The translations under genes were made by a program, and so were the position numbers. This document shows positions 1-14,880 of a DNA stretch of 38,760 nt, piece after piece. The stretch's first letter is position 1. Each line of letters starts with the position of its first letter. The notes beneath the pieces were generated by a model. That model was not told the DNA's origin. It made no database searches and saw only the letters and a program-made list of their open reading frames with translations. This DNA is from an uncultured Roseivirgaceae bacterium (GTDB taxonomy: Bacteria; Bacteroidota; Bacteroidia; Cytophagales; Cyclobacteriaceae): assembly GCA_964406435.1 (NCBI GenBank), contig CAYORY010000001.1, positions 1 to 38,760 on the forward strand. The letters are read 5' to 3'.

Positions 1-202
1 CTACCATTCCACCAAAAGAAATTCCGATAATCACGAAGGGTTCGTTAGTGTTAATTTGTTCCGAAAATCGGATTGCATAGTCTTGAATTGTCTCGTTACG
101 TTCTGGTTCAATCCATTGCAGTGGTATTATCTCGAAATCGAGACTTAGCTCTGAAAAGACTCGTTCATCAACACCTAAGCCACCTATTCCGTATACTTTC
201 AA
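1..202 (-). CDS. alpha/beta-hydrolase fold protein, N-terminal part only (gene runs off the left edge); cassette-borne
   Basis: The minus frame is open to the window edge. From a TTG at 202-200 it reads LKVYGIGGLGVDERVFSELSLDFEIIPLQWIEPERNETIQDYAIRFSEQINTNEPFVIIGISFGGMV. GISFGG is a GxSxG nucleophile elbow. A stop codon lies immediately upstream, so the start must be non-ATG. Confidence 0.6.
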   Translation of the reverse strand, partial: MKVYGIGGLGVDERVFSELSLDFEIIPLQWIEPERNETIQDYAIRFSEQINTNEPFVIIGISFGGMV

Positions 203-224
203 AACTTGATCTGGGGATTATGAG

Positions 225-456
225 AGGTAACGACCATGTATGAGGCGTGTGCTCTCACTCAGTGGACAGCACTAAAATAGTGAAGTCTGCCGGTGCTTCC
301 AAAGTTTGTAGAAAGCAGTGCGTTCTGAAGTGAAAAAATCCCGCGAACTGATGTATCCAAACCGCACAAATCTTTCTCGGCGGCTGACTCACGGTCAAGT
401 CCTGATGTGGTTTGTAGAAAGCATGTAAGCACATGCCTTCATACATAATGTTACAG
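225..456 (-). repeat. attC-like recombination site A (232 nt)
   Basis: The arm TAACGACCATGTATGAGGC (228-246) pairs with GCCTTCATACATAATGTTA (435-453), leaving an unpaired spacer and one bulged base. The conserved module AGCACTAAAATAGTGAAGTCTGCC lies at 268-291. The site sits between two cassette ORFs. Confidence 0.75.
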
Positions 457-849
457 ACCGTTCTTCAGTTGGCCGTTTGCCTGTTGAGAAAGTTCGAGTT
501 CACCAGTTCCAGAAGCGACCAAGTTGAAAAGAGGTTCGCCAGTTAGATGTTCAGGGTACAAAATCCGAGAGTTAAAAAGAGTTGAGTTAGCCAGTTCAGG
601 TTGTAGATGACCGTTGAGTAGGCTTGAAAGTTCCGTCCAGAAAGTTGGATCGTTCGTCAAGTCGTTAGAAACCTCATAAAGTGTTCCGTTCGAGTCAATA
701 AAGACGAAAAAATAGTCGTCAACAAATGGCCCTCCTTCGATTGTGTATTCGCCGATAAGTTGAATGGACTCTAGTTCGATCGACCAAGAAGTTAGGTTGT
801 TCTCAGTTAGCTCCAGTTGTCCGTTCCGAATCTTGAGTTTTGCAGTCAT
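451..849 (-). CDS. hypothetical cytoplasmic protein (cassette cargo, about 132 aa)
   Basis: This is ORF 451..864 trimmed to MTAKLKIRNG (ATG 849-847), because the upstream codons fall inside attC-B. The stop TAA (453-451) lies inside the attC-A core GTTACAG. No recognisable motif. Confidence 0.55.
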   Translation of the reverse strand: MTAKLKIRNGQLELTENNLTSWSIELESIQLIGEYTIEGGPFVDDYFFVFIDSNGTLYEVSNDLTNDPTFWTELSSLLNGHLQPELANSTLFNSRILYPEHLTGEPLFNLVASGTGELELSQQANGQLKNGL

Positions 850-852
850 GGT

Positions 853-1087
853 CTGTAACGCCAAGCTAGCAGTTTGTGCGCCCTCGGCTTATAAAGAGCA
901 CTAAAGTAGCGAAACTGCCCAACCACCACAAAAGCCGCTACGAAGAAATGCGTTCCCCAAGATAAAGACCAGAACCACAGAAAGGGCTAGCAGCACAAAG
1001 GTCTCAGAATGGGTAGTGAAGCGGGCAATTAACCGATGAAACTTGCAGATTGCTCATTTGGCGCATAACTGCTAGCGATTGTTAGTA
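853..1087 (-). repeat. attC-like recombination site B (235 nt)
   Basis: The arm TAACGCCAAGCTAGCAGTTTGTGCGCC (856-) pairs with GGCGCATAACTGCTAGCGATTGTTA (-1084). The conserved module AGCACTAAAGTAGCGAAACTGCCC lies at 897-920. The interior closely resembles attC-D. Confidence 0.75.
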
Positions 1088-1113
1088 GCTTTATTTTCGT
1101 TTTTGTTAACCTG

Positions 1114-1605
1114 TTAGAAGATGGTCAGCACGATGGTCTCAAAAAAAGCAAAGATGTTAGCCTTCTTTGTTCGTGTACAGAGGCTGGTTGTTAAATACTC
1201 ATCTGTTTTAGTACCAAGTCGAAATAGTTCGTTAGTGAGGTATCCATAAACTAGATGAGTTGTCCCCTCATCAAACCAGTTCCCACAATCAGCCCCACCG
1301 CCGGTTGTTCTGATCTTTAAAACTTCAGAGTCCCTAAACCTGTTCTTGCCTTTCTGAATGGATTTTACTTCGAATTCAAATTCGTAAATGTTATAGTCAA
1401 TATTACGAGTCTCGCCAGTTCCAGTCGTATATGATTCAGTAGTTGGGTATTCGGTGATTTTCGTAACAGTTCCCCGAAAAACAATGTCTGAATGTTTTTG
1501 AGCTTTGAAAATCCCAACTCGTCCGCAAGAACAAGCCATCACCTCAGTTGTTCCGATGAGGAGAAAAATTAGTAAAGTCAGAAGAGTTCTCTGCGTGAAG
1601 GTCAT
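1114..1605 (-). CDS. secreted TIMP/NTR-like protein (cassette cargo, about 163 aa)
   Basis: This is ORF 1114..1656 trimmed to MTFTQRTLLTLLIFLLIGTTEVMA|CSCG, because the upstream codons lie in attC-C. The signal peptide has a VMA cleavage motif that would expose an N-terminal Cys-x-Cys. The following sequence, CSCGRVGIFKAQKHSDIVFRGTV, resembles the N-terminus of mature TIMP-2 as recalled from memory ([24 protein letters not shown]). Confidence 0.55.
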   Translation of the reverse strand: MTFTQRTLLTLLIFLLIGTTEVMACSCGRVGIFKAQKHSDIVFRGTVTKITEYPTTESYTTGTGETRNIDYNIYEFEFEVKSIQKGKNRFRDSEVLKIRTTGGGADCGNWFDEGTTHLVYGYLTNELFRLGTKTDEYLTTSLCTRTKKANIFAFFETIVLTIF

Positions 1606-1608
1606 TGC

Positions 1609-1843
1609 TACTAACGACCAGCTATCGGGCGTATGTCCGCAGCTAGTGAATAGCACTAAAGTAGTGAAATCTGCCGAAGCTCACAACGGTTCCAAATGGC
1701 ATTGCGTTCTGAAAATTAAAACTCCTGCGCTCAAAAGCTGGTAGAAAGCACCGCCGTATCTCAGCGGCAGATATCACGGTCGAGTTGCACTGAAACCATC
1801 CAGAATGCACTGAGACATATGCCCGATCAGCATTTTGTTAGCA
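1609..1843 (-). repeat. attC-like recombination site C (235 nt)
   Basis: The arm TAACGACCAGCTATCGGGCGTATGTC (1612-1637) pairs with GACATATGCCCGATCAGCATTTTGTTA (1814-1840). There is an inner pairing of GTGAAATCTGCCG with CGGCAGATATCAC. The conserved module lies at 1652-1675. Confidence 0.8.
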
Positions 1844-1846
1844 TCT

Positions 1847-2494
1847 TTATTTTAGTCGATAAGAAGCGGAAAATTGAAATGTTCTATTCTGAAATTTCGG
1901 GTTGTTATCACTCGATATTGGGTTACCGAATTCATCCGTTAACTGCGGTGCGCTAATGACAGATGTGAAGCCGTGAGTGTATCTCATTTCAAGCATTAGA
2001 TTATCACTCAGAGAATAGCTTAACCCAGCAGACAGACCAAAATCAAAATTATTATCAAAGTTTTCTTTAACATCAATTGTTTCAGAATCGAACTTTGACT
2101 TTGCAGATAATAAATACCCAAATTCCGGTCCAGCTAAAAATGAAAGTTTGTCAATGACTTTATAACTCACGAGCACTGGAAAATTTATGTAGTTCAGATG
2201 TATAGATCCATCTCCTGAAGGTTGAGCACCTTGAATTCCTTCGGATGAATAGCCCTTATTTGAAAAAAGTAATTCCGGCCTTATTGCAAAATTGTCTGAG
2301 AGTTTAATTTGTCCAAAAAGACCAGCATGATATCCCAACCTGTATTTGTTATCGCTATTACTTCCATCAGGAGTATTATCGACCACATTGTTGACATAGT
2401 TAACTCCTGCCTTGATACCAAACTGTGTTTGCGCTTGAGTATATTCAAAACTGGAGACAAGGATAAGCAATAGTATTGTGGCTCTATTTTTCAT
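1847..2494 (-). CDS. outer-membrane beta-barrel (porin-family / OMP_b-brl_2-like) protein (cassette cargo)
   Basis: Signal peptide MKNRATILLLILVSSFEYTQAQ. The body shows alternating hydrophobic beta-strand patterns (FGIKAGVNY, GYHAGLFGQ, RPELLFSNKG). It ends in an aromatic-rich terminal strand (FSASYRLK). Confidence 0.65.
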   Translation of the reverse strand: MKNRATILLLILVSSFEYTQAQTQFGIKAGVNYVNNVVDNTPDGSNSDNKYRLGYHAGLFGQIKLSDNFAIRPELLFSNKGYSSEGIQGAQPSGDGSIHLNYINFPVLVSYKVIDKLSFLAGPEFGYLLSAKSKFDSETIDVKENFDNNFDFGLSAGLSYSLSDNLMLEMRYTHGFTSVISAPQLTDEFGNPISSDNNPKFQNRTFQFSASYRLK

Positions 2495-2515
2495 TACTTC
2501 GTTTGGTTTTATTGA

Positions 2516-2747
2516 TGCTAACGACCAGCTATGCGCCGTGTGTCCACAGCTGCTAGATCATGATAAAGATAGCGGAACTGCCCAACACCGATGAAGTGTC
2601 TACGAAGAAATGCGTTCCACAAGTCTAAGTCCAGAAGTAAAGAAGGAGGGGCGGGAGATGAAATATCAGAATGGGCGGTGTAGCGGGCGAGTCCCGATGC
2701 ACTTTCAGAAAGCACTATGACACATGGCGGATGAGCGTCTGTTAGAT
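2516..2747 (-). repeat. attC-like recombination site D (232 nt)
   Basis: The arm TAACGACCAGCTATGCGCCG (2519-) pairs with the CGGATGAGCGTCTGTTA end at 2744. A degenerate conserved module, ATGATAAAGATAGCGGAACTGCCC, lies at 2560-2583. The stop codon of the upstream cassette ORF (2744-2742) lies inside the GTTAGAT core. Confidence 0.75.
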
Positions 2748-3272
2748 GCTTTTAATTATGTGTTTTAATTCGTTCAGAAGTTCGTTCTCCTGTTCAGTTG
2801 GTTCAAGATAGCTTCCCTCAAGTCGAAATAGGTTGATCTTGTGTTCGGAGGTTAGACGCAGTTGAATGCTGTGAATGTATTCTTGAGAAGTTGGTTTAGT
2901 TGCAGTTGCATATTCATCAAAAAATTTCGAATGAAAGCCGATTTCTTTAATGTCCTCAAAACGTCTTGCCATTCTACCCCAGCGTTCTTCGATTGATTCA
3001 AATTTTCGATCTTTTAAGTTCAGAGTTAGGCTAGATTTCCCAGCAGTCTTAGATCCGGTTTTCAGCGTTATTATTATAACACCTATTAGAACAAGAATTC
3101 CCAAAATCAGAGAGAATGCCATTAGAAATAGAGATGGAAAAATCATGAAAACACCAAAAATTATGATCAAATAGCGGTTAGTGTTCGAATGCTTAATAGT
3201 AATCAGCTCCTCGGTCTGTTCAACCTTGTAGCCATTGTCGTTGAGAAGTTCGATAGAAGGTTTACTAAACAT
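2742..3272 (-). CDS. hypothetical membrane protein with a hydrophobic hairpin (2 TM) and a soluble C-terminal domain (cassette cargo)
   Basis: 176-aa ORF starting MFSKPSIELL. It has a long hydrophobic stretch, LIIIFGVFMIFPSLFLMAFSLILGILVLIGVIIITL. No family motif recognised. Confidence 0.55.
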   Translation of the reverse strand: MFSKPSIELLNDNGYKVEQTEELITIKHSNTNRYLIIIFGVFMIFPSLFLMAFSLILGILVLIGVIIITLKTGSKTAGKSSLTLNLKDRKFESIEERWGRMARRFEDIKEIGFHSKFFDEYATATKPTSQEYIHSIQLRLTSEHKINLFRLEGSYLEPTEQENELLNELKHIIKSI

Positions 3273-3289
3273 GCGGTAGTCAAAATTGC

Positions 3290-3421
3290 ATCTAACGGTC
3301 TCGTGTATGAGCAGTAGCGGATTTCAAGCCACATAACTGTCAGGTAGCACCGGCCTTTGATTAATAGTTTTAAGTTTCAAAATAGCACTGAACCCGCTAT
3401 TGCTTATACACAATGTTGTAT
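3290..3421 (-). repeat. attC-like recombination site E (132 nt; attC of the 5.2-kb cassette)
   Basis: The arm TAACGGTCTCGTGTATGAGCAGTAGCGG (3293-) pairs with CCGCTATTGCTTATACACAATGTTG (-3418). The length is classical for an attC. Its outer core, AATGTTGTATGCC (3412-3424), is the exact reverse complement of 8516-8528. Confidence 0.8.
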
Positions 3422-3542
3422 GCCCGTGCTTTTTCATTTTCTTTTTTGTCAGCGTTGGGGCAGCCGTACTCTTTGGCAAGTTTTGGCTTGTGTGGCTGCT
3501 TTGAGCGACTTGCCAATGTGTATGGATGCTTGCGGTTGCCAT

Positions 3543-6500
3543 TTAGTATCGTTCCAAGAATCTCCGTTGTCTTTCCCAGTCACCACTTTTTAAACAGCTT
3601 TCTATTCGCTCATTCAAATATTTCTTAATCGGGAGTAGTTTTATTCCCATTTGAGACTTATTGACTATAGCGAGAATATTTCGCCAGTCAGCTGCCTCAA
3701 TGTCTGCAAGTATTACATCCCCTGTTCCACTCGTTCCACTTCCTCTCCACATGATTTTGGAAAAAACCCCAACTTCCTGATTTATGGAAAGAAACAGCAA
3801 TAGCATTTCTTCAAATACTTCCTTCATTGAATGTCTTGCGATGTCCACAGCAACATTTACTTTTTGATGATCACTGTTGTTTGCTCGTACAAACTGAAAT
3901 AGAAAGTCCTTTGCCTTTTCCTTTGAATCTTCTGGTATATTTCTAAAGAAGGAGTTACAGAAGTGGTCGAGAATTCCGAAGTATGGTTCTCGCTCAATTA
4001 CTAAATCAAACACTTCAGTCAACACTGGTTCAATGCCATCTACTTGCCAAACAAATCCTAATCTTCTGTGATCTCCCGATAATCCAAATTTTCTTTCTGA
4101 GAATAAACTTTCTACGTATTCCATTAAGAACTGAGGGTCTTGCTTTAGAATGTTGAACATTCCTTTCCCTTCATAGTCAAAGTGGTTGTGAATCTTATCT
4201 TGTTGGATATACGCTTTCTTGATTAGGTCAATGTTATCCCCCAATTTGTCAAAATGAGTGCTGAAAAAGTCCATCCAAACCTGCAAGCCTGTGCCGTTCT
4301 CATTTTTCTCTACAATTTTTCTCAGAACAACTTGAAACAGGTTGGGTTCAATTGATAGAAACCGTTGCAGCCTGTCAAAATGGACTGTGTTCGAACCACT
4401 CATATTGCTTACCGTGTTCACTATAGCGTCAACGTAGCCCTTAGTCAGCAATGAATCCTCCAAATAATCGTAGAACGATAGCTCCCAATGAGCTTTAAGA
4501 TTGAAATCTTTACTTTGGATTATTGCCCAAATGTGCTCTGAAGATTCTGCAGTTTTCAGATGGTTTCGAAATACAACTCTCGGAATGTAATTTATTGTGT
4601 TATCAATTGCGATAACCTGATTTAATAGTTCACAGCCCAAATGAAAATCAAGACTGCAATTTTCGTCAATCACGAAATCAAGTGAATTATTATAATTCCA
4701 TTCATTCTTAGCTTTCTCCTTCAAGAACGTGAAAACTTTGATGAATTCTTCTACCTCAGTCCTTGTTTTGAAAACAAACGAAGTTCTTATTTCAGCTTCC
4801 TTCAGTCTTTCGTACTCTCGATAATCTTCGTATTCGTACATTTCCTTATCACGCAATATATCCCAATCAATTTTTAAATAGGTTTCGTAATCTGCATTGG
4901 TAAATGACTCTGCTAATGATGAAAATGAAGGGTGCAAAACAGAGTTCCTCTTACACCATCTTATCTGTTCGTGAACATACCTACAGTGTTCGAAATTATC
5001 GGGTGATAAATGCCTTTCAATTATGTCAATAACGTAAGGAACATCAAATTCCATTACCTCCCTAAGCACGTCTGGACTTACACTGGCATAACTCTGAAGG
5101 AGGCTGAAAGACTCGGCAGGAGAGTTGTTGAAGTCGTTTGCTACCGACACCCAAATATTTTTTCGGAACTCCTGGATTTCTTGACTATTTGGAATGGGAT
5201 ACTCATACCAATAAAACGAGTGATTGCGGCCTCCTTTTGTGTGTCGGAATTTGAAGGATAAAAATGTTTTAGATAATTCATAAAAAATAGAGGCACAGAG
5301 GTTGTCCTTTTTGTTTAAACCATCCAATAGTATTTGAAACAAAATTGACTGTCTTGCAAATCTGAACCTCTCATCATCTCTGTCAAACAGAAGCTGCTCA
5401 CGAATTTTGTGAATCAGTTCCGGTACATGCTCCGGCTTTTTCCGTACATATTCAATAGCCAATTCTAATGCATCGTTTAGATTGTTTGGAAATCGAAAAA
5501 ACTCTCCAAGCAACTCAATGACTTTATTCTTTTCATATGAAAAAGCATTGTTCTCATAAGTCACCTCAAAGCTTTCAGAAGTGGCATTTTCTAATGATTC
5601 TATAATGCCATAAATAAACGCCAATGATTCAGTTGACAGATAATACCAAAAAGCCGACAGAAATTTGAACCCTTTTTCTTCGTCATTCTTGATAGACTTC
5701 CAATGGTTTTGCAGATGTGGACGCAGTTTGTCCATTACTTTTTGCACTCCAAACGTGTTGTTTGCCGGAATCACACAATCTTTGAAGCGACTACTGTTGC
5801 TATCAAAATATTTACTCAGCAATACTTCAAATGAAAGTAGATTGTCCTTGATGAATGCCTTATAGAAGAAATAGGTTGATAAATTTTGCTCAGGAATTTT
5901 CACATGTTCAAACTGTATTTCAACCAATTCCAGTTTGTCTAGTTTATCTATAGCATCTATAAAGTGTGCATAGTCAATTTCAAAATTGTCAAGTATGGAG
6001 GTCACTAATTCCTTGTTCTTGTATGGGATGGTATAGAAGAATGCAATCAGACCAAGGCAGTTAATATTCAAGTCTTTCGCAAACTCCCCATCATCCTTGA
6101 TAAACGTTGAGAAGTAGTTTTCAAATAAATCTGATACATCTGCCAAGGCATATATATTCTGTTCAGCCTTTGCAAGTAGGGCAGTCATTATTGCCAATCG
6201 CGGATTTCCATCCGCAATGCGAACAATTTCATTGTGATAATCCTGATTTAGAATTTCGAAAGGCGTTGCCTTAACAATATCCGTAATCTGCTCATCTGAG
6301 AACTTGGATAAGTCTATTCTTTTGGGCGAAAATTCTTGACATAGTATTCCAATATCTTGGAACGCATAGTCTCTGACTGTAATCAGAATCTTTAACTTGC
6401 CTTTTTGGGTTGCTCTATAAAAAGTTGTTATTTGATTGAAAGCATCAATCCTATTTGCATCATCAACGAAAAGTATATGGTCCTTTTCGGAATCGAAATA

Positions 6501-7265
6501 CTGAAACAAATCATCGAGTAGTGTATGATGCTTATACGAAACACAATAAGCATCAAATTCATTGTTCTCCGCAAGGAATGCTTTTATCGCTTCGAGAGCT
6601 AATTTGGTTTTGCCAATTCCTGGCGCACCAGTCAGAATAATAAAATCATTCTGATGTATTGATTCGTTGAGGGTCTTGAGTTCTTCTTCCCGATGCAGGA
6701 ACGTATTATCAAGAGGGGTAGAGATGCCCGCGGATGCCTTGTTGTATTCTGCAATGAATTTTTCTATTGAAACAATTTGTCCAGTGTCTAATGGTAACCC
6801 CAAATACTCGTGGGTTAAATCCCTATGGTTCAAATGGAGTTCTATTGCCAACCAATCCAGATTGTAAATAGTAAGTACAATTCGGGTGTTAGCCAAAAGG
6901 TCATTTAACGCTTTTGTTTCCTTTGCTTTAGGATTGAAATTGACACAAAGAATAATCTCGGCTATTTGATTTACAGGAATGCCAGTCTTCGATTCATTGA
7001 GGCACTTTTGTACATCTTTTTTTAACTTGGAGAATCCATCTGAAACATTTGTAGAATGTTCAACGAAAATGAACTTACCATTTGGAAGAAGCAAAAAGGT
7101 ATCGGGAGTACCAGGTACAGTTTTCTGTTTGCCACTTTGGCTCCCGGCTCTTACTAAAGCCGAATAGTTACTATTCCTCAAAGCAAGAAAACTATCGCAT
7201 AACTCTTGGAAAGCAGCCGAGTTAATTGCTTTTAAAGCTTCTTCTATTGATTGTAGTCTACTCAC
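3543..7265 (-). CDS. STAND-class P-loop NTPase with a nuclease-like N-terminal domain and a long helical C-terminal domain (Avs/NLR-like candidate defence protein)
   Basis: 1240-aa ORF. Walker A is LTGAPGIGKTKLA (GAPGIGKT = nt 6606-6629). Walker B is HILFVDDANR (aa 263-272). A GxP-type motif, ADGNPRLAIM (GNPRLA = nt 6192-6209), resembles the NB-ARC GLPLA motif. The N-terminal about 170 aa contain PGTPDTF...FIFVEHST, reminiscent of PD-(D/E)xK nucleases. The C-terminal about 850 aa are helix-rich, with no catalytic motif seen. Confidence 0.85.
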   Translation of the reverse strand: MSRLQSIEEALKAINSAAFQELCDSFLALRNSNYSALVRAGSQSGKQKTVPGTPDTFLLLPNGKFIFVEHSTNVSDGFSKLKKDVQKCLNESKTGIPVNQIAEIILCVNFNPKAKETKALNDLLANTRIVLTIYNLDWLAIELHLNHRDLTHEYLGLPLDTGQIVSIEKFIAEYNKASAGISTPLDNTFLHREEELKTLNESIHQNDFIILTGAPGIGKTKLALEAIKAFLAENNEFDAYCVSYKHHTLLDDLFQYFDSEKDHILFVDDANRIDAFNQITTFYRATQKGKLKILITVRDYAFQDIGILCQEFSPKRIDLSKFSDEQITDIVKATPFEILNQDYHNEIVRIADGNPRLAIMTALLAKAEQNIYALADVSDLFENYFSTFIKDDGEFAKDLNINCLGLIAFFYTIPYKNKELVTSILDNFEIDYAHFIDAIDKLDKLELVEIQFEHVKIPEQNLSTYFFYKAFIKDNLLSFEVLLSKYFDSNSSRFKDCVIPANNTFGVQKVMDKLRPHLQNHWKSIKNDEEKGFKFLSAFWYYLSTESLAFIYGIIESLENATSESFEVTYENNAFSYEKNKVIELLGEFFRFPNNLNDALELAIEYVRKKPEHVPELIHKIREQLLFDRDDERFRFARQSILFQILLDGLNKKDNLCASIFYELSKTFLSFKFRHTKGGRNHSFYWYEYPIPNSQEIQEFRKNIWVSVANDFNNSPAESFSLLQSYASVSPDVLREVMEFDVPYVIDIIERHLSPDNFEHCRYVHEQIRWCKRNSVLHPSFSSLAESFTNADYETYLKIDWDILRDKEMYEYEDYREYERLKEAEIRTSFVFKTRTEVEEFIKVFTFLKEKAKNEWNYNNSLDFVIDENCSLDFHLGCELLNQVIAIDNTINYIPRVVFRNHLKTAESSEHIWAIIQSKDFNLKAHWELSFYDYLEDSLLTKGYVDAIVNTVSNMSGSNTVHFDRLQRFLSIEPNLFQVVLRKIVEKNENGTGLQVWMDFFSTHFDKLGDNIDLIKKAYIQQDKIHNHFDYEGKGMFNILKQDPQFLMEYVESLFSERKFGLSGDHRRLGFVWQVDGIEPVLTEVFDLVIEREPYFGILDHFCNSFFRNIPEDSKEKAKDFLFQFVRANNSDHQKVNVAVDIARHSMKEVFEEMLLLFLSINQEVGVFSKIMWRGSGTSGTGDVILADIEAADWRNILAIVNKSQMGIKLLPIKKYLNERIESCLKSGDWERQRRFLERY

Positions 7266-7272
7266 GATGATT

Positions 7273-7989
7273 TTAAATAAGCTTGTTAAGTTCGATTTTT
7301 AGCGAGTCCTTGAGTGTTTTTGAATCGGAATAGATTAAGAATCTTTGAGATTGGATATCAATAGGCAGATCTTTAGGTTCCTTTGAAATTAGTATGACTG
7401 ATTTGTCCAGTGCTTGAGCCACCCCAAGCTCATATAAGACATTAGGATTCCTTCCATTAATGTTAGCTATTATGATTCTTGCCTTGACCATATACCTAAG
7501 CATTTCAGGGAATATATCACCCTTAAACTCTTGTTCATCTCCTCTGATGCAATTAAACCCTGCACTTGAACAAACCTCCTTGATGGTCATAAACTCATTA
7601 TAAAATTGGCTATTAAAAGGAGTTAAGACAAAAACCAATCTGTTATCGATTTTAAGTTCATTCTCAGATATTCCATTTGCCTGAAGAAATTCGGAATAAT
7701 GAATTCTTCGATTAGTGCCCAAAGACTGATTATTTTCAAGATATTCCTGTCGTAGTAAAAGATGATTAACATCCCTCCATCGTTCTTCATTTTGCACTAA
7801 TCTGTCATTTAGTCCATACATTTTTTGCTCAAGAGAATGCCTTATGCTTTCAAGCATGGCCTTATTTTCTTCGCTATCATATCTGCTTTTCTTGAGATTG
7901 GAGTACAAAATGAAAGCTATTACACTAACGGAAATGCTTGCAATTGCTGTTATGATTATCGTAATGCTGCTAATTTCCATTTGACTCAT
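7273..7989 (-). CDS. membrane-anchored protein with a C-terminal nucleoside 2-deoxyribosyltransferase-like / TIR-like domain
   Basis: This is ORF 7273..8028; the likely start is MSQMEISS (ATG 7989-7987) or MEISS (7980). It has one N-terminal TM helix (ITIIITAIASISVSVIAFILY) and a coiled-coil linker. The domain (aa 129-240) reads VFVLTPFNSQ...KARIIIANINGRNPNVLYELGVAQALDKSVILISKE...LPIDI. The NVxYExG motif, with Glu at nt 7429-7431, is typical of that fold. Confidence 0.75.
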   Translation of the reverse strand: MSQMEISSITIIITAIASISVSVIAFILYSNLKKSRYDSEENKAMLESIRHSLEQKMYGLNDRLVQNEERWRDVNHLLLRQEYLENNQSLGTNRRIHYSEFLQANGISENELKIDNRLVFVLTPFNSQFYNEFMTIKEVCSSAGFNCIRGDEQEFKGDIFPEMLRYMVKARIIIANINGRNPNVLYELGVAQALDKSVILISKEPKDLPIDIQSQRFLIYSDSKTLKDSLKIELNKLI

Positions 7990-8392
7990 TTTTTGGTTCG
8001 ATATTCTCAATTTGGGCTTTTTCTTCACTATTCAACAGAATATCCATTGATTGTATTAAGGAGAAAATTGATATTGCCATATTCAAACAAAGTAGAAGCA
8101 CCCAGTAGTTGCTTTTATTTTCAAATAGCTTTAAACTTTTTCGCCACAAAATCACAACTACAACGGCCAGAACGATAAAAGCAATCGTGTAGAATAGCCC
8201 CGCACTCGGGTCTTTAGGTTCAGATATAGTAAATGCAATTAGAAATGATATAGAAAGGAAAATCATGTCAACCGGCAGTTCGCATATTGCCTGAATTAAA
8301 TTGGGAACCTCAATGTTTCTGTCAATCGCCAGTTTCAGAACGAATGCTAATACAAGCAATGTCAGGGGTAATATTATTTCCAAATGTTCCAT
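7970..8392 (-). CDS. small integral membrane protein (about 4 TM), first gene of the three-gene cassette operon
   Basis: 140-aa ORF starting MEHLEIILPLTLLVLAFVLKLAI. Four hydrophobic segments are followed by an acidic/polar tail. Its stop overlaps the start region of the next gene, which suggests translational coupling. Confidence 0.6.
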   Translation of the reverse strand: MEHLEIILPLTLLVLAFVLKLAIDRNIEVPNLIQAICELPVDMIFLSISFLIAFTISEPKDPSAGLFYTIAFIVLAVVVVILWRKSLKLFENKSNYWVLLLCLNMAISIFSLIQSMDILLNSEEKAQIENIEPKNESNGN

Positions 8393-8518
8393 TTATCTCA
8401 TTTCAGTTATTCTGTCGAGCGTTGGCAAAAAAATAGCTCTTTTGGTTTTTCTTGCGTTGGCTCTGCGTGTCTGCAAAAACCAAATGTGCTATTTGTGCGG
8501 TCGGCTTTTTTGCATGGC

Positions 8519-8758
8519 ATACAACATTAATATAACGCGCACAGTGCGCGTTATTTCCATTTCATATTTTCGAGTGGTTACAGACCTATCTTTCTGATAG
8601 TCAGTGATAAATCCAAGTAATAAACGTTTGTAAGCGTTTATTGTCGGATATAAGCGCCACTCTCCCCACCAAGATAGCACCTATTCATGAATGACGGGGT
8701 GGTCGAGAACCTTTCGTATACCTAGGCGTCACTGAGCGTTTCGCCCCCATCGTTAACT
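8519..8758 (-). repeat. attC-like recombination site F (240 nt; outermost site of the array)
   Basis: The ends are ATACAAC (8519-8525) and GTTAACT (8752-8758). The right half is homologous to attC-A/C: GGTCGAG at 8701-8707 versus 1778-1784, CACTGAG at 8730-8736 versus 1808-1814, and a CGCCC..CGTTA end. It contains a perfect 11-bp-stem palindrome, ATAACGCGCAC-A-GTGCGCGTTAT, at 8532-8554. It is more diverged than A-E. Confidence 0.6.
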
Positions 8759-8787
8759 CCAAATTCTGCCCTGAGTATTTTTGATTG

Positions 8788-9567
8788 TCATCTGCGTTGG
8801 CTGGACATGTGTTTGTTGATTTTCAAGGTGAGCCACCGTGGCGAGAAGCGCGGAGTGTTCACCAAAAATTGATTCATCAACCCAACGACCTTCGTGCGAG
8901 TTCCCTTCAGCATGGCGTCCACGCCCTGCTTTGCTACTACCTTTGCAGGAACGGACTTCATGCTGCCGTACGCATTGGTATTTAGGATTTCCTCGGTGTT
9001 GAATTCCGTGTCTGTGGGGCCAGGGCAGAGGTTGGTCACCGTCACGCCTGTACCGTCCAGTTCGGTTTTCAATGACTCAGAAAAGGAAAGAACGAATGCC
9101 TTAGTAGCGGCATAGACAGCATAGTTCGGAAAGGGAAAGAAAGACAGGATGGACGCCACGTTCATGATTCGGCCTTTTCCGGCGGTCTTCATTTCATCGG
9201 CAAAAAGGCGGGTTAGTACCATGAGTGACGATATGTTCACCTGAATCATATTTAGCTGAGTAGCCAAATCAGTTGCCACGAAATCTCCATAGGTCCCAAA
9301 CCCGGCGTTGTTGATCAGGGCGGTCACCTTCAGCTCCTTCTCCCGGATTTCATCATAGAGCGTCTGAGCGTTTTTTGGATCAGATAGATCCTTGGGCATG
9401 ACATGCGCCATGATGCCGTATTGCAGCTCCAGTTCGTCTTTCAACTCCAGTAATCTTTCGGTACGTCTGGCCACCAAAATCAGGTGAAAATCTTTGGCGG
9501 CCAATTGCCGGGCGATCTCCAGCCCTATGCCGGAGGACGCCCCTGTGATCAATGCTAATTCTCTCAT
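8788..9567 (-). CDS. SDR-family (short-chain dehydrogenase/reductase) oxidoreductase
   Basis: TGASSGIGLEIARQL is a Rossmann TGxxxGxG motif, NNAG is present, and YAATKAFV is the catalytic YxxxK motif. 259 aa. Confidence 0.9.
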   Translation of the reverse strand: MRELALITGASSGIGLEIARQLAAKDFHLILVARRTERLLELKDELELQYGIMAHVMPKDLSDPKNAQTLYDEIREKELKVTALINNAGFGTYGDFVATDLATQLNMIQVNISSLMVLTRLFADEMKTAGKGRIMNVASILSFFPFPNYAVYAATKAFVLSFSESLKTELDGTGVTVTNLCPGPTDTEFNTEEILNTNAYGSMKSVPAKVVAKQGVDAMLKGTRTKVVGLMNQFLVNTPRFSPRWLTLKINKHMSSQRR

Positions 9568-9576
9568 CGTGATAGA

Positions 9577-11994
9577 TTAAAATTGGATTCGGTACATCAT
9601 GTCCGGGAAGAAACCGATTTGGTTGACCGGGTTAATCTGATCGGTGACGCTGTTGTATCGTCGCACAAATTCGTTCTCGCGGTTGGTCACATTTTGCAGA
9701 TCTACGAAGAACTGGTGGGATACTTTCTTGCGGTTCAATCGCACGCCGAACTTCACATCCCAACGGAAATACTCGCCATAACTTTGGCTGAAGGCCTGAT
9801 CTTCGAACCGAACCTCCCGGCCTGCATTGGCGCGTGTGCCATCAATATCGATCGGGGTGAAAGGTCGTCCTCCCGCTGAGGTCACTTTGGAATCGAAAGT
9901 CCAGGCGTTTTGGTTGTTGGAACCAAATTTCCATTCTTTACCGAAGAGGATGTTCGCTACATAGTTGCTATTGAATGCCGTGTTTCGCTGCACCCCGTCG
10001 CTACCCTTGTATTGCGAGTCGAAAATGGAAGTAGTGAAAAGCAGGTAGTAATCCCGGCTGAAGAATTTTTCCAGTGTCAATTCTACTCCGATATTCTGAC
10101 CGGTTCCACCATTCACCAATGAGCCTTTTTCTTCGAAAATGAAATCTGATCCTTCGTTCAGCACAGAGTAGCTGGTGGGCGTTGCATCCACAGGCACATC
10201 GTACAGACTTTGGTAATACAGCTCCGTTTTCAGTCTCCAATCGGGGGCGAGCTTTCGGTCATATCCTAGCACAAAATGATGTGCATTCATGAAATCAAGT
10301 TGGTCGTTGGTGGCCTCCGTCACACCGGGTGAGACTTCCTCCCGATAGAACAGAACAGGGGCGGGGATGGCTTGACCGTGAAGGCCGTAAGCCAAACTCC
10401 ATCGTTGTTCGGGTGAGCTTTGCCAGCTTATCGCTGCGCGTGGTTCTAGTATGAAATCATTGGTATAGCCGTGGTACTGGCTGTGTAGCCCAAAGGTCAC
10501 GTCCAGGTCGTTGGTGATTTTGTATTCCGCTTGCGCAAAAGCCTGTGTCAGCTGATAGATTTCGTTCAGGTCATTGTATCGAATGAAATAATCAGGGATA
10601 GAGTCGTTGTTTGCATCCGGAATCTCGGCACGGTCGTCTCGGTCTTCGCCGAAAAGATTCATGTCGTAGGTCTCATTCAGAATGCCCACGTTCATACTCC
10701 AGCGTGCGTTGAATTTATGATTGAATCGAGTGAAAAAGGTGTACCGATTTTCACGGGTCTCTGAATTCACGGCCCGGTAGTCTTTGATCAGTTCGTCATT
10801 GTCGTCCAAAATTCGATTGTCCTGGTAGTAGCTATTGAAATTGGTCGAAGAGGCAATCGACGTTTTAAGGAAACTATTCTGACCAAATCGAATGGTGTTG
10901 GTCAGCCCGATCAGCCCGATTTCACTTTCCACGAAAGCATCCTGCATGGGGTCTGCGAAAAGGTCGTCCTCGTTGATTTCTTCACCAAGGAAATCAATGT
11001 TGCTCAGGCCATACAACCCGAACAGCTCCACCCGACCGATCGGTGTTTCACCAAGATTTGCTTTGAAAGAAAGATCCTGATAATAGGGAGCAGCCGATGT
11101 GCCGGTAGCGGCCAAGCTGGCAATTCCGTAGCGGTAAGAGGTCACGAAGGATGAGCCATTTTTTCGGCTGATCGGTCCCTCAGCCATGAACTCCAGCCCA
11201 GTATAGGCCGAAAGCTGACCAGTGAATTCGTAGGTGTCCGTGTTTCCATTTCGGAAGTTGATATCAAAAACTGCGGCGTTGGCATTGCCATATTCGGCAG
11301 GGAAGGCGCCTGTAAGGAAGTCGGAGGTGCGGAGCATGTTGGTGTTCAGCGCATTCACCGGACCGCCAGTGGTGCCCAGCGTGGAGAAGTGGTTGGTAGT
11401 GGGCACGGGGATGCCTTCCACTCTCCAAAGCAACCCGACCGGCGAGTTGCCACGAACGACAATGTCATTTCTGGCGTCATTGGTAGAATTGACCCCCGCG
11501 AACGAGGAAGCCAGTTTGGCCACATCATTTCGCCCGCCTGAGAAACGTGTCACTTCCTCCAAACTAAACGTGCGCGCGCTCACTTTCGCCAGATTATTGA
11601 TCGGTTGGTCTTTGTCTGCCTCGGCGGTGACCACTACTTCGGCGAGCTTTTCCACAGATTCTTCCATGGTTAAGCGCAAAACCACTTCTTTTCCTGAGGT
11701 TACCAGCACATTCGGCACAGTGAACGTCTCGTACCCTATGGACTGAACAACAAAAGTCTGTCGGCCCACCGGCACGTTCGGGATTCGGAAAATCCCATCG
11801 ATATCCGTGACAGCACCGAGTGGCGGATCAGAGTCAACGAGGATGACGGTCGCGCCAATCAACGGATACTCCGATTGTACATCGACGATGGTTCCTTTGA
11901 CGGTTTGCGTTTGCTGCGCAAATGCGGATGACAGCAAAAGGGTCAGCATCGCATAGGAGATAAAGGCAAGGGCTGTTTTGATACGTGGGTTCAT
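9577..11994 (-). CDS. TonB-dependent receptor with an N-terminal carboxypeptidase-regulatory-like domain
   Basis: The start is trimmed to MNPRIKTALAFISYAMLTLLLSSAFAQ (signal peptide, ATG 11994). The CarboxypepD_reg-like segment is GTIVDVQSEYPLIGATVILVD...DGIFRIPNVPVG. Plug motifs (RFSGGRNDV, VVRGNSP) are present, and the protein ends in the beta-barrel terminus YRIQF. Confidence 0.9.
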   Translation of the reverse strand: MNPRIKTALAFISYAMLTLLLSSAFAQQTQTVKGTIVDVQSEYPLIGATVILVDSDPPLGAVTDIDGIFRIPNVPVGRQTFVVQSIGYETFTVPNVLVTSGKEVVLRLTMEESVEKLAEVVVTAEADKDQPINNLAKVSARTFSLEEVTRFSGGRNDVAKLASSFAGVNSTNDARNDIVVRGNSPVGLLWRVEGIPVPTTNHFSTLGTTGGPVNALNTNMLRTSDFLTGAFPAEYGNANAAVFDINFRNGNTDTYEFTGQLSAYTGLEFMAEGPISRKNGSSFVTSYRYGIASLAATGTSAAPYYQDLSFKANLGETPIGRVELFGLYGLSNIDFLGEEINEDDLFADPMQDAFVESEIGLIGLTNTIRFGQNSFLKTSIASSTNFNSYYQDNRILDDNDELIKDYRAVNSETRENRYTFFTRFNHKFNARWSMNVGILNETYDMNLFGEDRDDRAEIPDANNDSIPDYFIRYNDLNEIYQLTQAFAQAEYKITNDLDVTFGLHSQYHGYTNDFILEPRAAISWQSSPEQRWSLAYGLHGQAIPAPVLFYREEVSPGVTEATNDQLDFMNAHHFVLGYDRKLAPDWRLKTELYYQSLYDVPVDATPTSYSVLNEGSDFIFEEKGSLVNGGTGQNIGVELTLEKFFSRDYYLLFTTSIFDSQYKGSDGVQRNTAFNSNYVANILFGKEWKFGSNNQNAWTFDSKVTSAGGRPFTPIDIDGTRANAGREVRFEDQAFSQSYGEYFRWDVKFGVRLNRKKVSHQFFVDLQNVTNRENEFVRRYNSVTDQINPVNQIGFFPDMMYRIQF

Positions 11995-12220
11995 GATTTT
12001 GAATTTGTTTGTCCGAAAGTACGGGGGTAGAGAAGGGCTATAAATAGGATTGGGCATGAGACCGGAAACCGGCTAGGTGAAAGTGGAAATCGGCGATTCG
12101 AAGAGGATTTCGGCGTTTTTGAAAATTCATCTTTTATTTTTCCCGTTTCAGCGATCATTTCCACAGCTTCATTCGAGTTTGATAGAAGGAATCCCTTCGG
12201 GCTTGGTTATTTTTATCGGA

Positions 12221-13255
12221 ATGAAACTGCGAGAAGTACATGTTCGGTGGATGGCGATCCCGCTTTTGGCACTCATAGCCATGAAAGCGGATGATGGCCA
12301 TATGGCCGCCGATCCTGTGTGGTATCAGTACGTGGTGGCGCTTGTTTTTACTGCCGTGTATTGGAATGGTGCCTGTCTGGTTATTTATTACTTCCGAAGG
12401 AAATTTCCTGAGATCTCCAAGACTGGCCGCAGGTTGATGCTCACAGGGCTGGGTATTGTGACCTGGATGTCTGTAGGCGGCATTCCAATCAAGCTGCTGT
12501 TTGGACTCTGCACGCTCGAGGAGGCGTTCACGTGGAATCAACATGCACAGTTTCTTCCTTTCAATTTTATTGCCGCTGCGGTGGTCAGCTTGTCCTACGA
12601 GGCGTTCTATTTTTTCGATAAATGGAAAGAGACCTTTCGCCTCAATGAAGAATTGAAAAACCGCCAGATCAGGACACAGTACGAAGTGCTGCAAAACCAA
12701 ATGAGTCCGCACTTTCTCTTTAACAGCCTTAACACCCTCACCACCATCATCGCCGAAGATCCTAAGTCAGCCATCAAGTTTACGGAGAAATTATCTGAGG
12801 TATATCGCTATATTCTACACAACAAAGAGCGCGAATTGGTGACCCTGCGCGATGAGGTGGAATTCGCAAAAGCCTACATGTTTTTGCTGAGCATCAGATA
12901 CCCGGAGAATTTGACGGTGGACTATCGCGTTGAGGAAAAATCACTGGACATGAACTTGCCCCCATTGACGCTTCAGATGCTCCTCGAAAACGCCATCAAG
13001 CACAATGTGATTTCGAAATCCAAGCCACTAAAAGTGGAAGTGTATGTGGAAAATGGAAAGTCAGTGATTGTGCGAAATAACCTGCAAGTGAAAGAAACAA
13101 TGGCCAAAGGCACCAAGACCGGACTAGAGAATATCAAGAAGCGCTACGGCATCCTTGGTGGGCTTGAAATCAATGTTCTGGCCGATGCAACCAACTTTAT
13201 GGTGACCGTTCCGCTCATCGACGTGCTGGAAGAAAAAGACCTGCGATTTTCATGA
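12221..13255 (+). CDS. LytS/YehU-type sensor histidine kinase (His_kinase + HATPase)
   Basis: The start is trimmed to MKLREVHVRW (ATG 12221). It has multiple TM segments. SPHFLFNSLNTLTTII is the PF06580-type H-box, and LLENAIKHN is the N-box. Confidence 0.85.
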   Translation: MKLREVHVRWMAIPLLALIAMKADDGHMAADPVWYQYVVALVFTAVYWNGACLVIYYFRRKFPEISKTGRRLMLTGLGIVTWMSVGGIPIKLLFGLCTLEEAFTWNQHAQFLPFNFIAAAVVSLSYEAFYFFDKWKETFRLNEELKNRQIRTQYEVLQNQMSPHFLFNSLNTLTTIIAEDPKSAIKFTEKLSEVYRYILHNKERELVTLRDEVEFAKAYMFLLSIRYPENLTVDYRVEEKSLDMNLPPLTLQMLLENAIKHNVISKSKPLKVEVYVENGKSVIVRNNLQVKETMAKGTKTGLENIKKRYGILGGLEINVLADATNFMVTVPLIDVLEEKDLRFS

Positions 13256-14007
13256 AAGTGCTGATCATAGAGGACGAGGCACCCGCGTATCGGCGGTTGG
13301 AGAAAATCCTGCTGGAGATAGACCCTTCGATCAAAATCTTAGAGGTAATCGACACGGTGGAGGAAGCGGTGAATTGGTTTGGTCAGAACTCATGCGATTT
13401 GGTTTTGATGGATATTCAGATCAGCGACGGCATCAGCTTTCAGATTTTTGACAAAATCGAAGTGAAGTGCCCGGTGGTTTTTACGACCGCCTTTGATGAA
13501 TACCTCCTCCGAGCCTTCAAAGTCAACAGCATCGACTATTTGCTCAAGCCGATAAAAAAGGAGGATCTGGTACGAGCACTGAACAAATACAAACGCCTGC
13601 ATGGCCACTCCATGCCGGAGGCCGACCTTTCAGCTATTTTGAAAAAGATTTCTTTGACGGAAGTCAACTACAAAAATCGGTTTTTGGTGAAGCAGGGGGA
13701 GAAGATGCTCTCTATCAAGTCGCAGGATGTGGTGTGCTTCCATAGCCGGCACGGGGTGGTGCATATCGTCACCAATTCCGGCAAAACGTACTTGTCTGAC
13801 TTCACGCTGGATGATCTTGGAAGCCAGCTGGATCCTAAGAACTTCTTTCGGGCCAACCGCCAGTTTATGGTCAATGCTGACTATGTGGGCACGGTACACA
13901 AGTATTTCAAAGGCAAGCTATTGGTAGAACTCAATGGCTTTGATGCGGAGGATATTGTGGTGAGCACGGAGAAAGCCAGCAGCTTCAAAGAGTGGTTGGA
14001 TCAGTAA
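13252..14007 (+). CDS. LytR/AlgR-family response regulator (REC + LytTR DNA-binding domain)
   Basis: MKVLIIEDE...DLVLMDIQISDGISF is the receiver domain with its phospho-acceptor Asp. The C-terminal segment FLVKQGEKMLSIKSQDVVCF...FFRANRQFMVN is LytTR-like. An ATGA overlap links it to the kinase gene. Confidence 0.9.
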   Translation: MKVLIIEDEAPAYRRLEKILLEIDPSIKILEVIDTVEEAVNWFGQNSCDLVLMDIQISDGISFQIFDKIEVKCPVVFTTAFDEYLLRAFKVNSIDYLLKPIKKEDLVRALNKYKRLHGHSMPEADLSAILKKISLTEVNYKNRFLVKQGEKMLSIKSQDVVCFHSRHGVVHIVTNSGKTYLSDFTLDDLGSQLDPKNFFRANRQFMVNADYVGTVHKYFKGKLLVELNGFDAEDIVVSTEKASSFKEWLDQ

Positions 14008-14055
14008 TTGACAGTTTGGATGACCCTTTTGTCATCAGTATTAATAGCTTTCTCC

Positions 14056-14841
14056 CTACTTCTCGGCCCGATAGATTATTTCTTCTTCGGGAAGAGCATA
14101 TTTTTTCACCTCTTCCGCATCGAGCTCAAAGACCAGTCTGTCTTCTACGACCTGAAAACCTGTGCTGCGGATTCTATCGGCATAGTCCTTTCCATAAAGC
14201 CGCACGTGATCGTCCTGCCCAAATAATCGCTCTCTTTCCTTCGGATCGGTAATGGTAGGATCTTCGGTAGTCTCGTCATTAAGTGGGTAGAAGAGGGGAA
14301 TCTGTAGAATAGCCCACCCTCCAGGTTTCAGCACCCGTCTCATTTCTTCCATCGCACGGATGTCGCTTTCCACATGCTCCAGCACGTGATTGCAGAAAAT
14401 GATATCGAAAGTATTCTCCTCGAATGGGATGTCATGAATGTCCATTTTCACTTTGGCCAGCGGCGACTCTATGTCCCCTGTGATGTAATCAAGGTTGTTC
14501 AATGCCTCAAACCTATCCATGAAGCAAAGCTCCGGTGCTATGTGTAGCATCTTGGCTGGTTTAGTGAAGAAATCCGTCTTTTGCTTCAGGTAAAGCCAAA
14601 TGAGTCTGTGACGTTCTAGGGCTAGGCAATTGGGACAAAGGGCATTGCTTCGGGATTTCCGACCGTAAGGAAGAAACTTACGAAATCGCGACTCGCACAC
14701 CGGACATTCGACCTTATTGCCTCGATAGAAAACAGCTAATATTTTCAGCACAAAATGACTGAAAAGCTGGAGGTACTTTCGAGGGATATGTCGTAAGAAA
14801 AAGGAAATTAAAAATTTCAACTGAAGGAATTTCAGGGTCAA
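14056..14841 (-). CDS. class I SAM-dependent methyltransferase with an N-terminal Zn-ribbon
   Basis: CPVCESRF...CPNC forms a Cys4 ribbon. DIIFCNHVLEHV and LKPGGWAILQIP match Methyltransf_11-type motifs. The start is non-ATG (TTG) in the ORF track, so it is uncertain. Confidence 0.75.
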   Translation of the reverse strand: MTLKFLQLKFLISFFLRHIPRKYLQLFSHFVLKILAVFYRGNKVECPVCESRFRKFLPYGRKSRSNALCPNCLALERHRLIWLYLKQKTDFFTKPAKMLHIAPELCFMDRFEALNNLDYITGDIESPLAKVKMDIHDIPFEENTFDIIFCNHVLEHVESDIRAMEEMRRVLKPGGWAILQIPLFYPLNDETTEDPTITDPKERERLFGQDDHVRLYGKDYADRIRSTGFQVVEDRLVFELDAEEVKKYALPEEEIIYRAEK

Positions 14842-14880
14842 AGTTATTCAAGATAGGAGCAAACCCCTATTTTTAGACTC

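Follow-up and report, generated by a model that had tools for sequence, protein, structure and literature searches.

What function could be served by a gene cassette several times larger than its neighbors in an integron-type array of an uncultured Roseivirgaceae bacterium (Bacteroidota; assembly GCA_964406435.1)? The stretch of DNA that raises this question, positions 1 to 38,760 of contig CAYORY010000001.1, is referred to here as the window, and the cassette occupies its positions 3296-8524 on the minus strand (5229 nt). It holds three tightly linked genes that encode, in the order of transcription, a four-transmembrane (4-TM) protein (gene 1), a membrane-anchored protein with the fold of the nucleoside 2'-deoxyribosyltransferases (NDT) and of DNPH1 (gene 2), and a STAND protein of 1240 amino acids (gene 3). 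Our analysis suggests that the cassette most likely carries an anti-phage immune module, a function to which both the architecture of the proteins and the gene neighborhoods of their relatives point. In the more specific form that we favor, and for which we would claim roughly an even chance of being right, an Avs-like sensor and nuclease has been joined by a separable membrane N-glycosidase module, recruited as a second effector arm, and the combination has spread partly as an integron cassette.

Much of this argument begins with gene 3 (3543-7265, minus strand). Residues 195-325 (6291-6683) constitute a STAND P-loop NTPase core, matched by the Pfam family nSTAND3 (PF20720) with an E value of 2.7e-11 and 43.8 bits, above the cut-off of 27.2, and nSTAND3 has been reported as the NTPase family of Avs5. 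Residues 1-165 (6771-7265) are predicted by AlphaFold2 (AF2) and Foldseek to adopt a PD-(D/E)xK-like, restriction-endonuclease fold; the AF2 model of residues 1-190 (pLDDT 79) has an alpha/beta core, and its best match in the PDB is chain 8dgf_B of Avs4 (E 1.3e-3, probability 1.0, TMq 0.55), followed by EcoO109I, EcoT38I, MspJI, Mus81/XPF and Card1. The rest of the protein, residues 326-1240 (3543-6290 with the stop codon), is a large C-terminal region that aligns colinearly across the family and is presumed to be the sensor. Across 22 family members, reaching down to ~25% identity, the Walker A residues G213, G216, G218 and K219 and the Walker B residues D268-D269 are invariant, as are G41, G52, P54, D55, T72, K80 and D84 in the N-terminal domain, where K48 and E69 are conserved in at least 90% of members. 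A preliminary description of the locus, made from the sequence alone, had proposed a STAND NTPase with a nuclease-like N-terminus and had named K219, D55 and E69 as residues worth mutating; the domain assignments and the conservation of all three residues bear this out.

The family to which gene 3 belongs is large, with 1370 clusters at 50% identity, 739 of them at E below 1e-30. Its members are almost all ~1240 residues long and colinear over their full length, the NTPase starting near residue 186, which indicates that the N-terminal domain is a fixed part of the family and not a swapped effector. Close relatives of gene 3, with full-length identities of 58-85%, occur in many Bacteroidota families and in Ignavibacteria, and the family as a whole was found in Bacteroidota, Ignavibacteria, Bacillus, Leptospira and cyanobacterial plasmids. 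One copy, 57% identical, lies on a Bacillus cereus megaplasmid (NZ_CP085502; locus L101, 111818-115540), adjoined by a restriction endonuclease and AAA ATPases, and several Leptospira plasmids bear copies at 41% identity, among them Leptospira interrogans pLiSL7 (L102); the plasmid copies L101 and L102 are without the TM and NDT genes. The copies in L001 and L006 are frameshifted. In phage collections the only relative of the STAND protein was a distant one, on an IMG/VR contig that resembles a prophage; NDT relatives were absent, and GenBank phages gave no hit, so the module does not appear to be typically phage-borne.

Gene 2 (7273-7980, minus strand) encodes 235 residues; its open reading frame (ORF) could be extended to 8028, giving 251 residues, and its homologues start at the methionine at 7980. 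Hydropathy places one transmembrane (TM) helix in this protein and none in that of gene 3. In the AF2 model (pLDDT 75) the TM helix (residues 5-28) is followed by a long helix (42-75), which carries the conserved motif EERWRDVNHL, and then by a Rossmann-like domain (112-234). From the basic KKSR that follows the TM helix and the positive-inside rule, the domain would be expected to face the cytoplasm. Among PDB structures the best Foldseek matches are nucleoside 2'-deoxyribosyltransferases, DNPH1/Rcl and the CMP N-glycosidase BcmB (E 1.6e-5). Matches at E up to 1e-3 comprise 39 chains, nearly all of them NDT, DNPH1/Rcl or BcmB, with target-normalised TM-scores reaching 0.76, and the top 50 are almost all N-glycosidases or transferases, together with a few flavodoxin-like flavoprotein chains. 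The Pfam family PF05014 is matched weakly by every one of the 37 family members scanned (best E 2.8e-6), the window protein scoring 20.9-21.1 bits, below the gathering score of 28.8. Invariant in the family are RGDE at 146-149 and, within the motif NINGRNPNVLYELG, N173, N175-R177, N180, V181 and Y183-G186. The glutamate E184, part of the invariant YELG, lies where the protein aligns with positions 47-103 of PF05014 and occupies the catalytic-Glu position of that match; the preliminary description, which had rightly singled it out, had called it Glu200, its number in the 251-residue ORF. That description had also called the domain NDT/TIR-like, of which the first half is upheld by the NDT/DNPH1 fold, whereas a canonical TIR domain was rejected because none of the 37 members hits a TIR family of Pfam and no TIR structure appears among the top 50 Foldseek matches. 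A sequence search of the PDB with the gene 2 protein gave nothing usable. Its closest match in PADLOC is a partial one to PDLC00733, a CBASS 'Effector TIR' model of the ligand-activated type (E 3.7e-7), and one source labels a homologue 'CAP12/Pycsar effector TIR domain'.

Gene 1 (7970-8392, minus strand) encodes a protein of 140 residues with hydropathy peaks at 5-23, 36-54, 64-82 and 98-116. An alignment of 20 of the 51 homologues found shows as invariant the motif CELPVD (with E38 and D42) as well as K20 and D24, charged residues being conserved within the first and second TM helices; searches of Pfam, NCBIfam and PADLOC gave no family match for this protein. All three minus-strand ORFs lie where the preliminary description had placed them. 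Its statement that gaps and overlaps between the genes are of 7 nt or less is accurate for the NDT-to-STAND gap of 7 nt and falls short for the TM/NDT overlap, which amounts to 11 nt with the start at 7980 or 20 nt with a start at 7989.

The coherence of the three genes as a unit is best judged from their distribution. The order TM-NDT-STAND recurs in ~20 other loci (L002, L007-L013, L015-L020, L022-L026, L092 and L095), where the NDT-to-STAND junctions range from -8 to +26 nt, and in an NDT-seeded metagenome scan a STAND gene follows in 13 of 13 cases in which the NDT protein is at least 54% identical to that of the window and there is room downstream. The two parts also occur separately: the STAND gene is found without TM and NDT genes in 14 loci (L001, L003-L006, L093, L094 and L096-L102), and the TM+NDT pair is found without a STAND gene in 15 metagenomic loci that have enough downstream sequence. 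In such STAND-less loci (L031-L066) the NDT protein is 35-53% identical to that of the window. The idea of a single three-gene system is in this way partly supported, since the order is repeated across ~20 loci and the unit is not indivisible.

Several variations on this arrangement were observed. In the STAND-less loci L031 (5968-7299), L038 (2992-4107) and L047 (995-2065) the NDT-like proteins have C-terminal extensions of 110-200 residues without a Pfam match, which may be alternative sensor or regulatory domains. An optional fourth gene, encoding an XRE-family helix-turn-helix (HTH) protein, lies directly upstream of the TM gene in L009 (8657-8866), L007 (8659-8865) and L012 (343-549), and a weaker XRE-type HTH is found in L010 (8197-8370); the window cassette is without an HTH gene. 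More distant STAND relatives are preceded by other genes, a modularity of partners that is characteristic of NLR-like systems: in L097 a gene for a caspase-like Peptidase_C14 protein (4940-5683) lies directly upstream, in L098 a gene for a 164-residue Mrr_cat nuclease (5510-6004) overlaps the STAND start by 4 nt, and in L100, a prophage-like contig, a gene for a 242-residue multi-TM protein (5179-5907) lies upstream of the STAND gene and after lysis genes. The STAND protein of L098 (P0325, 6001-10191, 1396 residues) begins with an additional domain of ~160 residues, placed before the nuclease-like one that the family normally has; this extra N-terminal domain is without a Pfam match and by eye looks like a TIR/flavodoxin-like beta-alpha domain.

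Relatives of these genes are found in defense islands, flanked by known or candidate defense genes. According to PADLOC, the three genes of L092 have a PDC-S31 (DUF2971) gene on one side and, on the other, genes for a Type IIG/ISP enzyme and a Type IV restriction enzyme; an AbiTii gene lies downstream in L010; bSEFIR adjoins the relatives in L009; an AriA/GajA-like ATPase, PDC-S31 and a Upx-like gene are the neighbors in L098; and a Type III restriction-modification (RM) system stands beside the STAND relative in L099. The TM+NDT-only locus L031 adjoins an EcoRI-type methylase and a GmrSD/HNH enzyme. Guilt by association of this sort is the customary evidence for a conflict system, and the finding of RM, AbiTii, bSEFIR and PDC-S31 genes beside five of the relatives is consistent with the preliminary description, which had taken the cassette for a candidate defense system. 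DUF2971 genes were seen near STAND members in four unrelated loci, L092 (7567-8514), L094 (18280-19179), L098 (10225-11640) and L100 (9977-10798), and correspond to the PADLOC candidate PDC-S31 in the two that were scanned (L092 and L098).

That positions 3296-8524 form a single integron cassette was also part of the preliminary description, and it is confirmed by two properties of the ends. As read from the sequence, the attC of the cassette (3290-3421, minus strand, 132 nt) has R'' ATACAAC at one end and R' GTTAGAT at the other; the bottom strand (3421-3290) folds into an imperfect, bulged hairpin of -20.8 kcal/mol (z = -3.7, equaled by 0 of 200 shuffles), in which the R and L boxes pair with bulges. 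At its start the cassette reads G|TTGTATGCC (8525-8516, GTTGTATGCC), and 10 of 10 of these bases match the reverse complement of GGCATACAAC at the R'' end of the cassette's attC; the 3' limit is the G of R' GTTAGAT. This complementarity is expected from G|TT recombination of a circular cassette that is subsequently re-inserted. The downstream cassettes obey the same rule (GTTAGAT/ATCTAAC, GTTAGCA/TGCTAAC, GTTAGTA/TACTAAC and GTTACAG/CTGTAAC), the next one with start TTAGAT and R'' ATCTAAC. An attC stem score devised ad hoc failed to tell real sites (16-25) from shuffled sequences (95th percentile 22), so the cassette calls rest on the test of complementarity between start and R''.

The array in which the cassette resides comprises at least five co-oriented cassettes within positions 1-8525, with attC sites at 225-456, 853-1087, 1609-1843, 2516-2747 and 3290-3421, and over positions 1-3545 every minus-strand ORF is trailed by an imperfect palindrome that starts with ...YAAC and ends with GTTRRRY. 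At 5229 bp the large cassette is 6-8 times longer than its neighbors (~628, 756, 907 and 774 bp), as had been noted before; the attCs of those four belong to one repeat family of 232-235 nt, from which that of the large cassette differs, being shorter. The AT-richness remarked on earlier is likewise evident, with a GC content in 1-kb windows of 0.355-0.392 over 3001-8000 and 0.415 over 8001-9000, against 0.446-0.534 in the flank at 9001-15000. No gene for a tyrosine recombinase or integron integrase is present in the 38.7-kb window, and the array is on that account classed as a cluster of attC sites lacking an integrase (CALIN-type) that runs off the start of the window. Integrons have been reported as rare in Bacteroidetes.

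Movement as a cassette is seen elsewhere in the family and takes several forms. Both in the window and in L002 the cassette signature accompanies a unit of three genes, and it also accompanies the four-gene unit with the HTH gene in L009 and STAND-only units in L001 and L006; the start is complementary to R'' over 10 of 10 bases in L001 and over 8 of 8 in L002, L006 and L009. The closest relative of gene 3 (85% identity) is the STAND-only cassette of L001 (2947-6778), which has a frameshift near residue 57 and whose core sites, GTTGTATGCC ... GGCATACAAC, are identical to those of the window cassette. An Xer/IntI-like recombinase upstream of the L009 array could not be classed as an integron integrase, its score of 194 bits lying below the IntI cut-off of 265. 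No cassette signature was found around the copies in L092 and L010, which shows that the module is not confined to integrons, and the start/R'' complementarity test gave no cassette evidence for the TM+NDT-only loci. Defense cassettes of mobile integrons (BRiCs) have also been reported outside integrons.

Conserved sequences at both ends of the operon suggest that it travels with its own expression signals. The 5' leader (8393-8524, minus strand), which had been put at about 125 nt, measures 132 nt and contains the motif GCCGACCGCACAAATAGCACATTTGG at 8480-8505. Upstream of gene 1, ~100 nt of leader are conserved by alignment in the window, L002, L008, L009 and L092, with the common motif GCC(A/G)ACCGCACA..AG.ACATTTG, and the L008 leader, with TACATTTG, agrees with TAnnTTTG, the -7 box of Bacteroidota; the leader is a possible promoter of the operon or an element of its 5' untranslated region. 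The STAND stop codon is followed, ahead of the attC, by a conserved 3' hairpin (3460-3529, minus strand; inverted repeat I7, DNA fold z = -2.5) that is kept in L009 (13739-13822), L002 (13752-13803) and L092 (13758-13810). Its consensus is a stem of 19 pairs with compensatory changes in 3 of them and no T-run; a search of Rfam at E up to 1 gave no match in positions 1-9000, the hairpin included. In L092 the hairpin is present with the operon outside any cassette, and leader and hairpin bracket the operon even outside integrons, as would fit a self-contained transcription unit. A CACATT core is common to the leader motif and the 3' hairpin region.

Taken together, these features allow a mechanism to be proposed in which two modules act side by side. 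In the first, the C-terminal domain of the gene 3 protein would bind a phage-derived ligand, upon which the nSTAND3 NTPase would oligomerize in an NTP-dependent manner, clustering and activating the N-terminal restriction-endonuclease-fold domains; the resulting cleavage of DNA would arrest or abort the infection. The second module would consist of the cytoplasm-facing NDT/DNPH1-fold N-glycosidase, held by its single TM helix, and its 4-TM partner with conserved intramembrane charges, and would serve as a second effector arm through cleavage of N-glycosidic bonds of the nucleotide or NAD type, through membrane damage, or both. In the clade to which the window belongs this second module would be coupled to the STAND gene transcriptionally and probably translationally, and the operon, equipped with its conserved leader, would be passed on by horizontal transfer, in part in the form of an integron cassette. 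A more elaborate version of this proposal, to which we attach a clearly smaller probability, holds that the TM+NDT pair is an unrecognized, autonomous abortive-infection module that was captured by an NLR-like sensor, in which case the 5.2-kb cassette would be a dual-effector NLR system, acting by DNA cleavage together with nucleotide N-glycosidase activity or membrane damage, that travels among Bacteroidota as one integron cassette with its own promoter.

A number of observations weigh against the proposal of an Avs-like sensor with a recruited second arm. The whole of gene 3, the presumed sensor included, is unusually conserved among its close relatives (58-85%) and its N-terminal domain is never swapped, and classical Avs families differ in both respects. 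The canonical lysine of the (D/E)xK motif is absent from gene 3, which has E69-H-S instead, and K80 or K48 would have to substitute for it, which leaves the nuclease activity presumptive. The likeness to Avs4 is at the level of the fold only and is marginal (E 1.3e-3), and neither sequence nor profile links the N-terminus to Mrr_cat or to any PDB chain: searches of PDB sequences with the STAND protein, the full-family profile and the N-terminal profile gave nothing usable, and hhalign of the N-terminal profile with the Mrr_cat protein of L098 aligned the first helix only (probability 0.6%), so that the nuclease assignment rests on the predicted fold. No hidden Markov model (HMM) of Avs, bNACHT or any other system in PADLOC matches; a scan of gene 3 against PADLOC-DB 2.0.0 (2023) at E up to 1 hit only mad8, over the P-loop stretch (2.8e-6), and MkoA (0.016). 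The same lack of a match in that database is in keeping with the earlier remark that the three-gene combination is not a named system. Both modules exist independently, and their coupling here may on that ground be only co-packaging. The identities of TM and STAND proteins are moreover incongruent between loci, at 46% and 74% in L002 and at 79% and 68% in L007.

The last two of these points lead directly to the view that the cassette holds two independent defense systems, a single-gene Avs-like STAND nuclease and an autonomous membrane TM/NDT pair, which are co-transcribed and co-inherited and exchange no signals. We think this rather less than probable and nonetheless worth serious attention. 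Consistent with it, the STAND gene stands alone in the cassettes of L001, L003 and L006, that of L001 having the same core sites as the window and holding nothing but the STAND gene, and it is alone also in L005, L093, L094 and on plasmids; the TM+NDT pair is alone in 15 loci, in one of them beside the EcoRI-type methylase and the GmrSD/HNH enzyme; and the identities of all three genes are incongruent between loci. Against it stand the strict co-occurrence within one NDT subclade (13/13), the conserved NDT-STAND junctions, overlapping or nearly abutting, and the same 5' leader and 3' hairpin that bracket all three genes in several loci, and other STAND relatives too have a dedicated upstream partner gene. 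On another view, which we find improbable, genes 1 and 2 form a regulator or sensor module in place of a second effector: the NDT-fold domain would be a regulatory domain of the SLOG-like kind that binds a nucleotide ligand, and not an effector enzyme, and would either control the opening of the 4-TM protein or hold the STAND protein, or keep it in check, at the membrane. The sub-threshold PF05014 match of the window protein would agree with this, as would the ligand-activated type of its closest PADLOC model (PDLC00733), the long conserved helix with EERWRDVNHL, which looks like a transmission element, and the optional XRE regulator gene, which suggests that expression needs control. Speaking for an enzyme, no variation is seen in the acidic residues that occupy enzyme positions (E184 in YELG; D148 and E149 in RGDE), the top structural matches are N-glycosidases and transferases almost throughout, and the cassette has no gene for a generator of a nucleotide signal, be it a cyclase, a TIR protein or similar.

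It might also be asked whether the operon has anything to do with immunity. An addiction or stabilization module of the cassette array, or a signaling ATPase paired with a membrane enzyme of nucleotide salvage, could be maintained through horizontal transfer, and some of the data can be read in this way: the 1240-residue protein is highly conserved and of uniform length, which suits a machine tied to one constant partner better than a sensor under rapid evolution, the NDT and DNPH1 relatives are metabolic enzymes, and the STAND family is essentially absent from phage collections. We nevertheless give this reading little credence, as the family is repeatedly found among RM, abortive-infection (Abi), bSEFIR and PDC-S31 genes and integrases, has a patchy spread across phyla on plasmids, in cassettes and in one prophage, and has swappable upstream partners of a toxic type (caspase, Mrr-like nuclease). 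The frameshifted copies in L001 and L006 are likewise what would be expected of costly accessory genes.

Set against known systems, the operon appears to resemble an NLR-like protein of the Avs4/Avs5 type combined with a toxic NDT effector like that of Retron Ec86. With Avs4 and Avs5 gene 3 has in common a STAND P-loop NTPase, a very large C-terminal domain and, by prediction, a nuclease-fold N-terminus; the model of its N-terminal domain has its best structural match in Avs4 (8dgf), its NTPase belongs to nSTAND3 as in Avs5, and, as with Avs, it is a stand-alone gene in many genomes and occurs in defense islands. It differs from Avs in that no Avs HMM of PADLOC matches it, that its N-terminal domain is fixed over the 1370 clusters, that its nuclease motif is without the lysine at the (D/E)xK position, and that two dedicated membrane genes lie upstream in the window clade. 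A possible further difference concerns the C-terminal 900 residues, for which the preliminary description had proposed a long helical structure with sensor repeats: repeat families, TPR among them, were looked for and not found, either in the window protein (Pfam, E up to 1) or in the precomputed Pfam domains of 120 listed homologues. An NDT-like effector is known from the defense system of Retron Ec86 (Retron-Eco1), a precedent for such a domain as a toxic arm, and gene 2 shares with that effector, and with DNPH1, NDT and BcmB, the fold and the conserved glutamate at the catalytic position. It differs from the retron effector in being membrane-anchored, in being paired with a 4-TM protein and in its PF05014 match, which is below the curated cut-off. 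A retron was itself rejected, as the cassette has no reverse transcriptase-like ORF in its ORF list and no msr/msd, with no Rfam match in positions 1-9000. The pairing of a multi-TM protein with a single-pass protein that has a cytoplasmic, Rossmann-like nucleotide-processing domain is also found in two-gene systems of a small TM protein and a TM-TIR protein and among the TM/TIR effectors of CBASS and Pycsar. The fold of gene 2 is, unlike theirs, that of NDT/DNPH1 and not a canonical TIR, and a CBASS or Pycsar operon was rejected because the cassette has no cyclase gene. The layout of genes 1 and 2 may also be akin to that of Rst_2TM_1TM_TIR, one of these two-gene systems. As a candidate defense module that occurs as an integron cassette and also outside integrons, the operon is comparable to the BRiCs, from which it differs in its Bacteroidota host, its size (5.2 kb, three genes and 6-8 times that of the neighboring cassettes) and the absence of an integrase from the window.

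If a role in defense were confirmed, a function would be at hand for a large uncharacterized protein family (1370 clusters at 50% identity), and a membrane-bound effector pair with an NDT fold, which occurs independently as well, would be newly defined. It would further imply that one NLR-like family plugs into interchangeable upstream effector genes, whether TM-NDT, caspase or Mrr-like nuclease, and would extend the idea of integrons as biobanks of defense to Bacteroidota and to multi-gene cassettes of 5 kb. As the modules are separable, the question of their coupling is directly testable.

The flank of the array completes the description of the locus. Upstream of position 8525 are a perfect 10-bp hairpin, a gene for a short-chain dehydrogenase and one for a TonB-dependent receptor. 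The hairpin, TAACGCGCAC / GTGCGCGTTA at 8532-8554, lies 7 nt upstream of the GTT of the first cassette and downstream of the dehydrogenase gene; neither an attC nor an attI is recognizable at this position, and the hairpin could be a terminator that was used as a non-canonical insertion site. The remainder of the window is Bacteroidota chromosomal housekeeping sequence, with sorting domains of the type IX secretion system (T9SS), PGK and Sua5.

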